Shown here piece after piece: positions 1,022 to 15,139 of a stretch of 60,878 nt of DNA (its first letter is position 1; every line of letters begins with the position of its first letter). The stretch is from Candidatus Aerophobetes bacterium Ae_b3a. GTDB taxonomy: Bacteria > Aerophobota > Aerophobia > Aerophobales > AE-B3A. Both the position numbers and the translations under genes were made by a program. The DNA is taken from NCBI GenBank assembly GCA_005223095.1, contig NJBQ01000004.1, positions 1 through 60,878 on the forward strand, read 5' to 3'. Below the pieces are notes generated by a model. It ran no database searches and was not told where the DNA came from. It worked only from the letters and a program-made list of their open reading frames with translations.

Positions 1022-1188
1022 TTTCTCCTCCCTTAATTGATGAAATTTCTCTATTATTATAGCACATTCTTTCAGGCAATCAATAAAGAGTTTGTTTTTC
1101 GTTCAAAGAGGAGCATTGATGTTCCTGGGCGAGTAAATTGCTTGCTTGTGGATTTTTTGCTATTATGAGAAAAAAGAGGGGAAGATAA

Positions 1189-1857
1189 CTGGAGAAGGCT
1201 AGAAAGACTATATCTTTTGATGTGGATGGTACTCTGGTTAAGCCAGAGTTTAATGACCTCATATGGCGTGAGGTTATACCGGAGCTTTATGCCCGGAAAA
1301 ATGAAATAGAAATTGAAGAAGCGAAAGGATTTATAGAGGGGGAATATGATAAGATCGGTGAATATGACTTAAGGTGGTACAGTCTTGATTTCTGGCTCGG
1401 CTATTTTCGACTTAATGTAAGAGAAAAGGAGATATTGGGGGAGTACGCTGGGAAGGTTAGTGTATACCCTGATGTCTTATCCACCCTGGAGAAGCTCAGC
1501 AAGAATTATCAATTGGTCATTGCCTCTTGCATGGGCAATGATTTTATTGGTATAAAATTGAGAAAAAGAAATATCAAGAAGTACTTTAAGCGAGTTTTTT
1601 CTGCTGTGTCTATCGGGTTAATAAAGAAAGAAGAGAGTTTTTATCTTGCCCTCTGCTCAAGTCTTAACATCAAACCAGGTGAGCTTATTCATATTGGTGA
1701 CCATTATGAGTTCGACTATCTTGTGCCCCGACAGGTTGGTATAAGGGCGTTTTATCTAGATAGAAATAGTGACAAGCAGAAGGTGAGTTTAGATGGGGTG
1801 AGAAGTCTACACGATTTTACCAGGTATCTATGCGGAGGAGAAGGAAATAGTGGCTAA
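1189..1857 (+). CDS. HAD-superfamily hydrolase (probable CTG start at 1189)
   Basis: motif I ISFDVDGTL begins upstream of the ORF-track GTG at 1222; motif IV HIGDHYEFD; GAGGGG RBS 7 nt before CTG, in-frame TAA immediately upstream. Confidence 0.85.
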   Translation: MEKARKTISFDVDGTLVKPEFNDLIWREVIPELYARKNEIEIEEAKGFIEGEYDKIGEYDLRWYSLDFWLGYFRLNVREKEILGEYAGKVSVYPDVLSTLEKLSKNYQLVIASCMGNDFIGIKLRKRNIKKYFKRVFSAVSIGLIKKEESFYLALCSSLNIKPGELIHIGDHYEFDYLVPRQVGIRAFYLDRNSDKQKVSLDGVRSLHDFTRYLCGGEGNSG

Positions 1858-1990
1858 GGTCTATTCCATTACTCTTTTCGGAATCGAGACATATCCAGTA
1901 GAAGTAGAGATTAGCCTGCCTGGAGGACTTCCCCGTTTTAATAGTGCTGGCTTTCCTGATGTAGCAGCAAAAGAGGCTAGCGCAGGCTCA
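1847..1990 (+). pseudogene. comM: comM 5' remnant (about codons 1-45)
   Basis: IVAKVYSITLFGIETYPVEVEISLPGGLPRF..GFPDVAAKEA aligns with 13604-13740. Confidence 0.9.
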
Positions 1991-3118
1991 AGAATCATCC
2001 TCCTGGGGACTCTTTAGAAAATCCAAAACTTCTTTTGAGGGCCTATTTGAAATAGAAGCTACTACCTCTCCATTATGTCTGAATATCGTCTTTGTGTCTT
2101 CTTTAACTTCACCTATAACAGTTCCAACACCTCCAGCCCCTTTAATTTCCTTCAGTACACGCTGAACATTTTCAGGTGAAACCGTAAATGAGTACCTGGC
2201 TTGAGTTTCATTGAGAATTAGTTCAGCCGGATTAAGTTGTTTCCCTTGTTTCATAGGAACCTTTGAGAGTTCAATTTCAGCTCCCAACCCACCTGTTTTG
2301 GCTGCTTCGCATACAGCAGCTCCTATGCCTGCGGCTCCCAGGTCGGAAAGGGAGTGCATAAGACCTGTTCGTATAGCAGCCAGCGCAGCTTCCATACTCG
2401 TTCTTTCTTCTTCAAGCAATGGTTTTGCTGGTTTCATTTCCTTTGCCAATCCTGCACGGAATATTGTGTCATTACCATCATCATCGGTTTCTCCGATAAG
2501 GATAATACTATCCCCAGGGTTCTTGAATGGTTTTGTTAGGGGTTTATCGGTAACAAGTCTTCCTACAACTGACACCACTACCGCTGGCACTACGCCATCA
2601 AGCGAGGTAGAAAGGCCACCACCTAAGAGAATAACACCCATAAGCTTGCATACGTCTCTCACCCCTTTGGTAATTAGATTTAGTCTTGCCTGATTTGTCA
2701 TCCATTGACACTTTCCGCATCTGCATTCACCTTTAAATCCACAAGGGCCGACCAGGACTTTTTTATCCAAAGATCCCAGACCCACGAAATCCTCCAGGAA
2801 TAAAGGTCTAGCCCCCATAGCAACAATATCTCGTATTGCACCGCCACCACCGGTAAAGGCTGAGCCCCAGGGATCAACCACACAGGGAGAACAGTGGCTT
2901 TCCATTTTACCTACTAGCTTAATGCCCGTTCCAGGAATTCCTATGACTCCAGCATCATCCCCCGGACCAATTAACAATATATCTGGAAACAATTTTCTTC
3001 GTATTTTTTGGTTTAGTTTATCGATCTCCTCAAAATCAATCACATTGTCGATATTATGATGCAAATGCACAAAGAGTGCATACATCAATGCTCTTTCTAT
3101 TACATTCAGTTCTCTCAT
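1988..3118 (-). CDS. half-size PurL-like (AIR-synthase-related) protein with Cys-rich insert
   Basis: GPGDDAGV, KMESHCSP (PurL ESHNHP), GGAIRDIVAMGARP, DLGAAG, ETQAR (PurL ESQER); only 376 aa. Confidence 0.75.
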   Translation of the reverse strand: MRELNVIERALMYALFVHLHHNIDNVIDFEEIDKLNQKIRRKLFPDILLIGPGDDAGVIGIPGTGIKLVGKMESHCSPCVVDPWGSAFTGGGGAIRDIVAMGARPLFLEDFVGLGSLDKKVLVGPCGFKGECRCGKCQWMTNQARLNLITKGVRDVCKLMGVILLGGGLSTSLDGVVPAVVVSVVGRLVTDKPLTKPFKNPGDSIILIGETDDDGNDTIFRAGLAKEMKPAKPLLEEERTSMEAALAAIRTGLMHSLSDLGAAGIGAAVCEAAKTGGLGAEIELSKVPMKQGKQLNPAELILNETQARYSFTVSPENVQRVLKEIKGAGGVGTVIGEVKEDTKTIFRHNGEVVASISNRPSKEVLDFLKSPQEDDS

Positions 3119-3164
3119 TTTTTCCCCCCTTATTTTCCCTGACCTTTCCCGATAAAAAATTTAA

Positions 3165-13163: not shown

Positions 13164-13440
13164 ATTTTAGCTTTTCGATGCCCAGCAAAAGGGAGATAAG
13201 TTTAAGGGCAGGAGTTCTAAACTCTGTCTTTGGTGTTTCTTCAATCATTTTTTTTACCTCTTTTTCCCCATAGAACTTAACTATCCAAATCCAATGTTTC
13301 CATTCTCCATAATTAATGGAATTAACAATAATGGTTTTTTTGTGTCTTTGAGGGTCCAGGGAAGAAAAATCATAGGACCAAAACAGAGGCTTGAAAAATA
13401 GAGGAAGATTTGGATTTTTGCTTCTTGTTTTCATAGTCAA
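13120..13440 (-). CDS. DUF6922-like putative antitoxin
   Basis: LFWSYD...LD...HKKTII...INYG; overlaps the toxin start. Confidence 0.7.
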   Translation of the reverse strand: MTMKTRSKNPNLPLFFKPLFWSYDFSSLDPQRHKKTIIVNSINYGEWKHWIWIVKFYGEKEVKKMIEETPKTEFRTPALKLISLLLGIEKLKYASRSDYLKSQTNI

Positions 13441-13502
13441 ATTATATCATTTTTCTCAGTTTTAGCAATAGAAATTGACTGCTTCTTAATTTTTTGCTAT
13501 GA
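13439..13502. promoter_or_regulatory. back-to-back sigma70 promoters (TA operon and comM)
   Basis: + strand TTGACT-17-TATGAT from 13476; - strand TTGCTA...TATAAT at 13441-13468. Confidence 0.7.
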
Positions 13503-13603
13503 TTTTCTTTGAGGGAAAAGCGGGTAAAAGACAACTGGACAAATACTCCAGATTTAGCTTGCAGCTTAGGAATCAGCCAAGTATCTATCCAAAGGAGAAA
13601 AAA

Positions 13604-15139
13604 ATAGTAGCTAAAGTCTATTCCAGTGCTCTTTTCGGAATCGAGGCATATCCAGTAGAAGTAGAGGTTGACCTGGCTAGAGGACTTCCCAAATTCAGTA
13701 TTGTTGGCCTTCCTGATGTAGCAGTAAAAGAAGCAAGAGAAAGAGTAAGCTCTGCCATCAAGAATTCATCCTTTACCTTCCCCACTAAAAAGATTACCGT
13801 AAATCTGGCCCCCGCTGACATCAAAAAAGAAGGTTCTTCCTTTGACTTATCCATAGCTATCGGCATTCTAAAAGCCAGTAATATTATTGCAGAAGATGAG
13901 TTGAGCCGCTATAGCGTTCTGGGAGAGTTAGCTTTAGATGGTTCGGTGCGCAGAATTAATGGTGCCTTGCCCATAGCGCTAGAGCTTAAAAGAAGAGGTG
14001 TGAAGGCTCTCATTCTTCCTGAGGAGAATGCCCGTGAGGCAGCTGTAGTATCTGATGTTGATGTTTTTCCTATTAAGAACCTTATCCAAGTAATTGCTTT
14101 TCTTAACCAAGAACTCTCTATTCCTCCTTTTAAATATAATCTAAAAGAAGCACTTGAAGAGAGTTCTTCCTATGAGATGGACTTCTTTGAGGTTAAAGGT
14201 CAGGAGTATGTAAAAAGAGCCCTAGAGATTGCGGCGGCTGGCTCGCACAATATCTTGATGCTCGGTCCTCCTGGGGCAGGGAAGACCATGCTGGCTCGCC
14301 GAGTTCCCACTATCTTGCCTGACCTTAGCCTGGATGAGGCTATCGAAACTACTAAACTTCACAGTGTGGCGGGATTTCTCTCGGGTAGTCAGGCTCTTGT
14401 TGGCATTCGTCCCTTCCGCTCCCCTCATCATACTATCTCTGAGGCAGGACTTATTGGAGGGGGAAGAATACCTCGTCCGGGTGAGGTGTCCCTTTCTCAT
14501 AACGGAGTTCTCTTTCTAGATGAGCTTTCTGAGTTCTCTCGCCATGTATTGGAATCTTTACGCCAGCCTCTGGAAGATGGAGTAGTGACTATTTCTCGTG
14601 CTCTTACCTCTATAACCTATCCTTCCAGATTTATGCTTATAGCAGCTATGAATCCTTGTCCTTGTGGCTACTTTGGTGACCCGAGGCGGGAATGTAGCTG
14701 CACTCCTTTGGAGATACAGAAGCATCTAAACAAAGTTTCCGGACCCCTGTTGGACAGAATTGACATCCATATTCAGGTAGCAGCAGTAAGAAAGGAAGAG
14801 CTCCTGGGAAAGGGAGAGGGTGAGCCCTCGGCTAGAATCAAGGAGAGGGTAAACAAGGCTCGCAATATCCAGCTTGAGCGCTTCAAAAAGATGAACCTAT
14901 ACTGTAACGCCCGGATGAACCCTAAACATATTCGCAAATTTTGCCGCAGCGATAAAGAAGCAGAGGAGCTTCTTCGTTCTGCCATCTCTGAGCTTCGTCT
15001 TTCTGCCAGAGCCTACCACAAGGTTCTTAAAATCGCCCGCACCATTGCCGACCTGGGAGAAAAGGAAACAATAAACTCATCTGATGTCTCCGAGGCTCTG
15101 CAATACAGGTATCTGGATAGAGACCTCTGGAGGAGATAA
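13604..15139 (+). CDS. comM: ComM/YifB Mg-chelatase-like AAA+ ATPase (probable ATA start at 13604)
   Basis: [61 protein letters not shown] 6 nt upstream of ATA. Confidence 0.95.
   Translation: MVAKVYSSALFGIEAYPVEVEVDLARGLPKFSIVGLPDVAVKEARERVSSAIKNSSFTFPTKKITVNLAPADIKKEGSSFDLSIAIGILKASNIIAEDELSRYSVLGELALDGSVRRINGALPIALELKRRGVKALILPEENAREAAVVSDVDVFPIKNLIQVIAFLNQELSIPPFKYNLKEALEESSSYEMDFFEVKGQEYVKRALEIAAAGSHNILMLGPPGAGKTMLARRVPTILPDLSLDEAIETTKLHSVAGFLSGSQALVGIRPFRSPHHTISEAGLIGGGRIPRPGEVSLSHNGVLFLDELSEFSRHVLESLRQPLEDGVVTISRALTSITYPSRFMLIAAMNPCPCGYFGDPRRECSCTPLEIQKHLNKVSGPLLDRIDIHIQVAAVRKEELLGKGEGEPSARIKERVNKARNIQLERFKKMNLYCNARMNPKHIRKFCRSDKEAEELLRSAISELRLSARAYHKVLKIARTIADLGEKETINSSDVSEALQYRYLDRDLWRR

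Follow-up and report, generated by a model that had tools for sequence, protein, structure and literature searches.

The stretch of DNA analysed here, called the window, comprises the 60,878 nucleotides (nt) of contig NJBQ01000004.1 from Candidatus Aerophobetes bacterium Ae_b3a (phylum Aerophobota) and corresponds to contig C72 of a 2.37-Mb metagenome-assembled genome (MAG) made of 141 contigs (87% complete, 3.7% contamination). Its first 15 kb hold one intact copy of comM (13604-15139, plus strand), a gene that assists DNA uptake, preceded by shorter pieces of the same gene and of its promoter that are scattered among unrelated genes. An earlier note on this DNA had read the region as the serial duplication and decay of a unit composed of a promoter, a HAD-type hydrolase gene and comM. 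We mapped the pieces by blastn and tblastn searches of the intact comM unit against the window, completed by repeat finding, and compared the locus with 31 Aerophobota genomes, the same set serving for the comparison with relatives and for the phylum-wide search. These genomes bear labels of the type G000, those labelled G001 and G002 being the other two sampled species of the window's genus, and the residues (aa) of comM pieces are numbered on the 511-aa protein starting at 13604.

The intact comM gene and its divergent promoters

The product of the intact gene scores 665.5 bits against TIGR00368 (cut-off 362.4) and matches PF13541, PF01078 and PF13335 in Pfam (ChlI, Mg_chelatase and Mg_chelatase_C), indicating that it is a full-length Mg-chelatase-like AAA+ ATPase of the ComM/YifB family. 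Its closest named relative comes from a Candidatus Aerophobetes MAG (75% aa identity). comM is 96% identical among the three species of the genus, the differences (about 4%) being evenly distributed along the gene without any mosaic block, with ratios of synonymous to nonsynonymous codon differences of 40:14, 42:14 and 48:14; the intact gene is under purifying selection. The frame opens with ATA GTA GCT (13604-13612) and not with ATG, GTG or TTG, as is also the case at loci L013 and L014. In other genera comM starts with ATG, GTG or TTG, and the displaced 5' end described below (relic r1) retains a GTG. An AAGGAG motif lies 6 nt upstream of the ATA, and initiation may occur at an AUA codon; only in the window does the frame stay open up to an ATG at 13499. 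Within the gene, AAGGTCAGG (14196-14204) and its complement (14318-14326) form a 9-nt inverted repeat.

Immediately upstream (13441-13603) are found two divergent promoters, one reading towards comM (13475-13503, plus strand) and the other away from it (13468-13441, minus strand), and a leader devoid of the HAD gene; part of this region (13499-13520) resembles comM 14177-14198. The leftward promoter is followed on the minus strand by a putative toxin-antitoxin pair, namely a DUF6922 gene (13120-13440; Pfam) and an AbiEii toxin gene (12546-13163; Pfam PF08843, 1.3e-14).

Relics of comM and of its promoter

The pieces of comM listed in the earlier note were all recovered by BLAST with coordinates accurate to a few bases, except for a possible one at 4863-4888, which proved to be an 11-nt match only. 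To these we added the pieces at 3126-3147, 4299-4338 (a stump of the DUF6922 gene), 8440-8470 and 25650-25684. The main comM pieces are not chance matches (E values from 1e-8 to 1e-49 in BLAST searches against the window), a 19-nt core pattern was matched twice against 0.05 expected, and nothing else in the whole 141-contig genome resembled comM above noise. Promoter-like sites overall were not in excess (26 against 29.6 in shuffled sequences), and only the specific sites given here are used.

At the left end, a promoter and leader (TTGCTT-17-TATTAT; 1135-1196, plus strand) align by blastn with 13472-13542 (70% over 71 columns, E 0.008). They precede the HAD-type hydrolase gene (1189-1857, plus strand), whose end overlaps relic r1 (1820-1980, plus strand), a displaced 5' end made of 27 nt of leader and comM codons 1-44. 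This relic is 83% identical to 13577-13737 and is also found in G001:C152 at 94%. Further on, repeat finding revealed a 22-nt scrap (3126-3147, plus strand) that resembles comM 14306-14327 (17/22) and pairs as an inverted repeat with 4409-4430 (20/22), including an exact inverted 17-mer with 4409-4425. The PurM-like gene (AIRS_b) lying in between is therefore flanked by inverted bits of comM. The 40-nt stump of the DUF6922 gene (4299-4338, plus strand; 80% to 13335-13374, inside that gene) and a second copy of the promoter region (4331-4412, plus strand; 87% to 13439-13520) come next. Because it carries these 40 nt, the second copy derives from the divergent promoter region between the toxin-antitoxin pair and comM. 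Its leftward promoter (TTGCTA-16-TATAAT, 4360->4333) is intact, as good as that at 13468->13441, and now faces the PurM-like gene. The copies near 1135 and 4331, both detected by blastn, together with the one next to the intact comM, bear out the threefold repetition of the promoter that had been proposed.

The second promoter copy runs into a piece coding for comM aa 194-201 (4397-4418, plus strand; 21/22 to 14183-14204), itself overlapping relic r3, which corresponds to aa 217-241 in inverted orientation (4410-4485, minus strand; 84% to 14251-14326). The window follows comM up to the first copy of its 9-nt inverted repeat (4418) and then continues with the reverse complement from the second copy (4419-4485), and 4397-4485 thus has the signature of an inversion junction at comM's own repeat. 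Relic r4 (aa ~122-170, inverted; 8325-8470, minus strand) lies directly downstream of a TPR-transglutaminase gene and is the most decayed piece: its matched core (8330-8464, aa 127-168) is 60% identical in aa and 75% in nt (tblastn/blastn), the global nt identity being about 0.62. If the order from the TPR-transglutaminase gene to comM were ancestral, r4 might be the original gene; this adjacency was observed only in genera g1 and g5 among the 19/31 genomes that have the transglutaminase gene.

Close to the toxin-antitoxin pair, relics r5 (aa 366-406; 12251-12374, plus strand; 93.5% to 14698-14821) and r6 (aa 474-511 and the stop codon; 12372-12486, plus strand; 93% to 15022-15137) are fused, with 200 nt of comM absent between them and one TAG inside; r6 ends at its stop codon 55 nt before the pair. 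The start of r5 overlaps by 6 nt with a stretch of 27 nt (12230-12256, plus strand) that recurs identically in two copies of a longer repeat of contig C12. An unrelated 3' relic in an unclassified bacterium (L049, 13494-13680) also lacks about 200 nt of comM, and the two gaps are at nearly the same place (about aa 407-473 in 12251-12486 and aa 419-485 in L049). Downstream of the intact gene, a 35-nt copy of its 3' end (last 10 codons and stop; 25650-25684, plus strand; 86%, E 5.6e-5) is located 10.5 kb away, immediately ahead of rnfC, with 98% conservation in G001. The sources of the relics are therefore spread along the whole comM gene and not confined to one end, and the relics contain in-frame stops.

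Three units of different age

The features described above can be arranged in three units. U1 (1135-1980) comprises the promoter, the leader, the HAD gene and comM codons 1-44. U2 (4299-12486) comprises the DUF6922 stump, the divergent promoter region and the pieces for comM aa 194-201, 217-241 (inverted), 366-406 and 474-511, which are separated by 7.7 kb of unrelated genes, the plus-strand pieces being collinear and in gene order. U3 (12546-15139) consists of the AbiEii/DUF6922 pair, the promoter, the leader without HAD and the whole comM gene. U1 and U3 share the promoter, the leader and the 5' end of comM, and U2 and U3 share the 5' end of the DUF6922 gene, the promoter and a piece resembling the aa 194-201 segment. 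Three promoter copies, collinear comM pieces and a common plus orientation for all but r3 and r4 are the features of a tandem segmental duplication followed by decay, and r1 and 13577-13737 form direct repeats of a target segment flanking 11.6 kb while comM itself is intact, a feature shared with tyrosine-integrase islands that duplicate a gene end.

Divergence from the window's own comM falls into at least three classes, about 7% for r5 (8/124 mismatches) and r6 (8/112), about 16% for r1 (21/134) and r3 (12/76), and more than 25% for r4 (global identity about 0.62), indicating that the events were serial. The view of serial copies in one orientation and of different ages is in agreement with these classes. 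Judged from the sequence, the remains of at least two older comM copies surround one working copy, and the unit copied last would include the toxin-antitoxin pair and not the HAD gene.

The HAD gene itself (Pfam Hydrolase/HAD_2; nucleotidase-like in NCBIfam, below cut-off) is 95% identical in aa in G001:C152. Its frame opens right after an in-frame TAA and has no ATG, GTG or TTG ahead of the catalytic DxDGT motif, so translation would need a CTG or another unusual start. The motif AAGA(T/C)AACTGGA is present just before this frame and at 13527-13541, with a better match in G001 and G002, and CCA(G/A)GTATCTAT is present at about 1821 and at 13578. These two shared stretches are the flanks of an indel containing HAD. 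The traces of both ends of the HAD gene that had been noticed before the intact comM are thus real as shared flanks; the loss from the last copy deduced from them fits the data as well as a gain in the first copy. No further HAD relic was found in the window, and an Rfam scan gave no family at E <= 0.1, save a ylbH-leader match far below threshold inside HAD.

Contiguity of the stretch and variation among relatives

Assemblies of the two other species reproduce parts of the window, namely 281-4307 (G001:C152), 12934-17000 (G001:C6), and 3155-4306, 8464-10970, 12002-12230, 12542-13538 and 13533-16583 (G002:C116). G002 lacks 4307-8463 (4.16 kb) and 10971-12001, and carries in place of r5/r6 a 405-nt unalignable filler that ends with comM aa 344-368, where r5 begins in the window. 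In G001, the inverted end of the ankyrin gene is joined to a truncated AbiEii gene at a junction that differs from that of the window. Cargo turnover across related genomes, one of the expectations of the earlier note, is therefore observed in both relatives. The right flank (radical SAM (rSAM) and LpxL-like genes) and the toxin-antitoxin-comM arrangement are common to all three species. The three-unit frame thus predates the split of the three sampled species, and its sub-segments vary today. The 4.16-kb segment was considered as a repeated mobile element, a candidate that we rejected as it is not multi-copy in its own genome.

Part of the stretch is contained in 18/24 listed public runs, which are cold-seep and marine-sediment metagenomes; 14 runs contain at least half of the sampled words, and 9 studies are represented. 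Contigs of 4 runs from 4 studies cover 30/30 bins at even depth, and those listed include contigs that bridge 4485/4486 and 8470/8471. Independent metagenomes from four studies thus contain the stretch, as a check against mis-assembly demanded. For 4306/4307 and 12230-12542, no bridging contig is among those listed, and these joints are supported by the assembly of the window and by depth. In one run, 4305 and 8471 are joined on a contig (depth 12.2 compared with about 37, side 30, 92% likeness) that may come from a G002-like species. Further contig joints skip r1 (1831->2010, 1864->1993) or 72 nt inside comM, the latter being an in-frame deletion (14832-14905) on a contig of one run (depth 11.9).

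comM as a hotspot in the phylum

comM is present in 28/31 genomes of the phylum. Short internal pieces of it (at least 60% identity) were found in at least 8/31 genomes (G000, G001, G002, G004, G008, G010, G021 and G017), and in about 13 genomes a contig end interrupts comM. Additional comM pieces in G005 and G011 stand outside this count. When the same search was applied to RnfC as a control, internal short pieces were found in 0/31 genomes and splits at contig ends in about 3. comM stands out in this respect. It is an established target of mobile elements (Croucher et al. 2016, PMC4774983), as the earlier note states, and it is also a hotspot with a comM-specific excess of relics in the phylum. 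Outside the phylum, an extra comM-like piece accompanies comM at 5/80 loci (1.1 Mb of flanks), one of these five being an Aerophobetes record and another a paralogue-like match with 29% identity. Integrases are lacking from the inserts that separate comM from the relic at loci outside the phylum.

Parallel layouts were observed in other genera. In G004, the promoter and comM aa 1-43 fused to aa 188-200 are followed by a HepT/MNT pair and then by the promoter and a whole comM. The duplication starts at the -35 box, and the two relic pieces are 93% and 95% identical to the intact gene of G004. Relic and intact copy both differ by about 15% from comM of G007, which belongs to the same genus, so these copies belong to one lineage. 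A foreign origin of the 5' end in G004 was not supported by this three-way comparison (85.2% to G007 for the intact copy, 83.9% for the relic). In G017, Uma2 and comM are followed by a 77-aa open reading frame (ORF) and a PIN protein (VapBC-like pair), a truncated MFS gene, and duplicates of comM aa 299-335 and of Uma2, the latter including its 5' flank. G008 has three copies of the promoter with the 5' end of comM. A toxin-antitoxin pair is thus located between a relic and a whole comM in three genera, and the neighbours of comM differ in nearly every genus.

Contig G001:C58 also carries a comM relic. It matches G008 at 95% and has no match in G000 or G002, so that it is most likely mis-binned and we counted it only as a g4-type relic. 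Horizontal transfer into G001 was rejected, the relic being closest to comM of genus g4 (110-111/126 against 88/126). Two other unusual ORFs were noticed. L131 (G011:C1, 4265-4951) holds a 228-aa ORF that resembles a short, diverged ComM (50% over aa 191-240, 32% over aa 345-502) amid many small ORFs, and in L126 (G010:C88, 1134-1781) comM codons 1-77 are fused in frame to 138 residues, giving a 215-aa ORF.

How the array may have formed

No common att core was found at the relic ends, and the readable junctions carry different short microhomologies: 8-9 nt at 4306/8471 (TTTTCTTG / TTTTCCTCG), 9 nt at 4410-4418, 6 nt at 12251-12256 and 3 nt at 12372-12374. No intact integrase is present within 1-30 kb, where the only trace is a 106-aa fragment, none being found among the ORFs of 15-30 kb. 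The varied microhomologies, the lack of a common core and of an intact integrase, the copying of neighbouring genes and the one-lineage copies of G004 lead us to favour repeated insertion with direct duplication of the comM unit, in part or as a whole, at an old and still changing hotspot, a reading to which we assign a probability of roughly 0.5. The proposal that successive captures by an integrase restored comM each time is not supported: no shared att core was found, the microhomologies differ, and the relics derive from regions throughout comM.

The order of events, the coupling of duplication with insertion and the stabilising role of the toxin-antitoxin pair are what we infer from these observations. 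DNA would have entered repeatedly at comM, every entry being accompanied by a direct duplication of part or all of the unit, either through a Campbell-type entry of a circle carrying comM sequence or through a tandem duplication followed by an insertion. One complete comM would survive each round, and the spare copy would decay and become a tolerated sink in which further insertions and deletions accumulate, together with an inversion at the 9-nt inverted repeat. Being located between the copies, the toxin-antitoxin pair probably hinders the recombinational collapse of the duplication.

Several points weigh against this scenario. A stabilising role of the pair is proposed by analogy with integron arrays and from three cases. 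No empty site, that is comM without any relic, was found in the genus and no event was caught in the act; the three-unit layout is fixed in the three species sampled, all compared genomes are incomplete MAGs, and the informative contig G001:C58 comes from another genus. ThrRS (threonyl-tRNA synthetase), used as a second control, also gave 0/31 in the same search but is a weak one, close orthologues existing in only 3/31 genomes. Divergence is uneven inside the proposed U2 (13% for the promoter, 16% for r3, 7% for r5/r6), so that gene conversion or a further event is needed, and r4 and the scrap at 3126-3147 fit the three-unit scheme only with extra inversions. Finally, breaks at aa 42-47 recur in g1, g3 and the g4-like contig, g1 and g3 also share breaks at the EVKGQ-coding site, and this recurrence hints at a site preference that plain duplication does not predict.

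Such a preference would be expected if successive elements with a tyrosine integrase had inserted at fixed att sites in comM (near codon 44, at the EVKGQ-coding site and near codons 458-474), each bringing a promoter and a comM end that rebuilt the gene in the manner of islands at dusA or tRNA genes, the integrases and most att copies having decayed since. Integrase elements are known at the orthologous comM site in many species (Croucher et al. 2016, PMC4774983), and a recombinase fragment is among the cargo. In addition, 5' relic ends fall within about 15 nt of each other in the window and G001:C152, in G004 and on contig C58; the duplicated segment begins at the promoter -35 box in G004, C58 and G008; plus-strand homology stops at GGTCAGG(AG) in the second promoter copy of the window and in the G004 relic; the 35-nt copy of the 3' end lies 10.5 kb downstream; and 3' relics of other genomes start at aa 458-474, several of them at contig ends. 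We nevertheless consider this explanation, the main rival, somewhat unlikely. Besides the missing integrase, mid-gene relics and a complete 3' end upstream of the intact comM are not expected from islands that replace gene ends, the antitoxin stump of U2 and the Uma2 copy of G017 point to copying beyond a gene end, comM's own inverted repeat accounts for the junction at 4418, and in G004 the intact 5' end is no more foreign than the relic. comM-relic inserts in other phyla likewise lack integrases, and the breaks fall in the best conserved motifs, where homologous crossovers between divergent copies would be favoured as well.

A different possibility is that a whole gene with its promoter and toxin-antitoxin pair arrived, by homologous or illegitimate recombination, beside a broken resident comM (U1/U2) and replaced the lost function. 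The variable neighbourhood of comM and the low GC of the adjoining toxin-antitoxin pair are in line with it, as is the sequence after the Uma2 copy in G017, which is not comM, as if Uma2-comM and the pair had entered a Uma2 locus. Relic r5 is moreover nearer to the G001 allele (4/124 mismatches) than to the window's own comM (8/124), a difference that is too small to weigh. The common flank and gene order in the three species and the even differences between their alleles speak against such an arrival, and we regard it as improbable. As for an assembly or binning artefact, in which pieces of different strains or species would be collapsed into one contig, one could invoke the 3.7% contamination, the short contigs of the public runs, which branch at 8471 and about 12230, and the mis-binned contig of one relative. 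However, the relics do not exceed 161 nt and differ by 7-38% from the intact gene, so they are not collapsed repeats. Contigs G001:C152, G001:C6 and G002:C116 independently reproduce parts of the stretch, and contigs of the four runs cover it at even depth and bridge 4485/4486 and 8470/8471. Mis-assembly is therefore very unlikely, and we give the artefact hardly any credence.

A bolder reading can be formulated for the Aerophobota. Small integrase-less modules made of a toxin-antitoxin pair, the comM promoter and part or all of comM might enter at comM, with crossovers in the stretches coding for its most conserved motifs, perhaps aided by short tyrosine recombinases made of the catalytic domain only and acting on a AAGGTCAGG core. 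Each entry would rebuild comM and lock in a spare copy, making the locus a self-renewing docking platform that gathers cargo while comM stays functional. We hold this reading to be unlikely and put it forward as speculation.

Comparison with known systems

Tandem genomic islands at tRNA and tmRNA genes each leave a copy of the 3' end of the gene. The window resembles such arrays by its serial events at one target, its row of target fragments and the different cargo in between, but the arrays repeat the same short segment whereas the fragments of the window differ in position, orientation and age. No tRNA gene that could have served as another target is present in 1-30 kb. In Acinetobacter, the AbaR/AbGRI resistance islands in comM are reportedly Tn7-like; here too comM is a fixed landing site at which islands diversify in place. 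In contrast to these islands, the window's comM is uninterrupted, and Pfam detected no TnsA/B/C- or TniA/B/Q-type family, and thus no Tn7-type transposition genes, in the 18+17 ORFs scanned. Toxin-antitoxin cassettes are known to stabilise chromosomal integron arrays against deletion, and in three Aerophobota genera the pair likewise lies between direct repeats whose recombination would delete it. The cargo of the window is co-oriented as in an integron cassette array, but no integron integrase with attI and no attC-like or other repeat family recurring between cassettes was found in the window.

According to Croucher et al. (2016, PMC4774983), integrase-bearing elements insert in comM of Aggregatibacter, Acinetobacter, Mannheimia, Francisella and Pseudomonas syringae, and these insertions split the gene, which is read as blocking transformation. 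The same target is thus used across distant taxa, and a tyrosine-recombinase remnant is present in the cargo of the window. Unlike the elements described in that text, the window has a comM that is whole and selected, surrounded by decayed copies, with no active integrase or defined ends. The dusA islands reported by Farrugia et al. (2015, PMC4482086) insert at the 5' end of their target and bring a replacement 5' end. A displaced 5' fragment at one end and an intact gene with a second 5' copy at the other are also found in the window (1820-1980 against 13577-13737) and in G004. However, in that description dusA islands rely on a dedicated integrase and one att site, whereas the relics of the window stem from many regions of comM, and the duplication at comM can extend to the promoter, a neighbour gene or a toxin-antitoxin stump.

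Mobile elements are known to break comM, which has been read as sabotage of DNA uptake. In this uncultured sediment phylum comM is a hotspot as well, yet it has been kept whole through several rounds of insertion, with the old copies as scars. If duplication with insertion is true, the locus would be a concrete example of a host keeping a targeted gene working while the site collects cargo, and it would suggest how toxin-antitoxin pairs may freeze such duplications. The series of relics of at least three ages provides a natural time-line for the decay of gene copies, and strain variation in cold-seep populations can be followed with this locus as a marker.

Cargo genes and other features

Distinct genes were identified by Pfam and NCBIfam in each interval, as the earlier note had maintained, and 12/12 cargo ORFs are on the minus strand. 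Between r1 and the second promoter copy are found two AIR-synthase relatives, one PurL-like (1988-3118) and one PurM-like (AIRS_b; 3165-4286), both matching AIRS/AIRS_C in Pfam and below cut-off in NCBIfam. After r3, the segment 4490-5905 contains three small ORFs without family match and the dead tyrosine-recombinase fragment (5585-5905, 106 aa), which covers positions 88-157 of the 172 of the Pfam Phage_integrase profile. It is XerA/integron-integrase-like in NCBIfam, far below the IntI cut-offs, and confirms that only a dead integrase remains, reduced to part of its catalytic domain. A DUF4412 and ankyrin-repeat protein gene (6266-8161; Pfam; PADLOC PDC-M72A, 2e-24) precedes r4. The TPR-DUF3857-transglutaminase gene (8543-10957; Pfam/NCBIfam) is accompanied, within 8543-12111, by a 188-aa ORF without assigned family and a 159-aa dUTPase-like ORF. 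The AbiEii/DUF6922 pair has a low GC content (31-34%), the partner of AbiEii being DUF6922 and not the upstream AbiEi antitoxin of AbiE-type (type IV) systems. PADLOC matches to AbiEii are weak, and PADLOC gave no defence system beyond this and the ankyrin candidate.

In G001:C4 and C204, the recombinase module occurs in different surroundings. The frames of the closest relatives of the fragment are only 174-186 aa long and correspond to the catalytic domain alone, XerA/integron-integrase-like and of the size of the FimB/FimE invertases (G001:C4, G005:C6, G007:C38, G016:C92, G017:C156 and G023:C98). In G001:C4, two recombinase copies form a 328-nt inverted repeat around 2.5 kb. A role of these short recombinases as invertases was considered and rejected: no convincing flanking inverted repeats were seen in 5 loci, and only G001:C4 has two inverted gene copies.

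Between comM and the copy of its 3' end at 25650 are encoded rSAM, LpxL-like, TrpRS/TyrRS-type and ThrRS proteins, an MNT/HepT pair (21654-22407), a methyltransferase, PHP, DUF3795 and GNAT proteins, and no integrase. The ThrRS (19575-21476) has an archaeal-type editing domain, and its close orthologues are those of G000, G001 and G020; the remaining genomes have a ThrRS-like gene of about 29% identity, and no second copy was seen in G000. Finally, a dispersed repeat of about 70-90 nt is present as 3-4 units at 190-535 of the window, and one of its types is a GC-rich hairpin (CCCCTC...GGGGAGAGGG). Contig depth at 190-535 is 10-20x that of the neighbours, and dozens of copies are present in G001 and G002. 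A 72-nt copy is found in the comM leader of G002 only, indicating a recent movement of the repeat.

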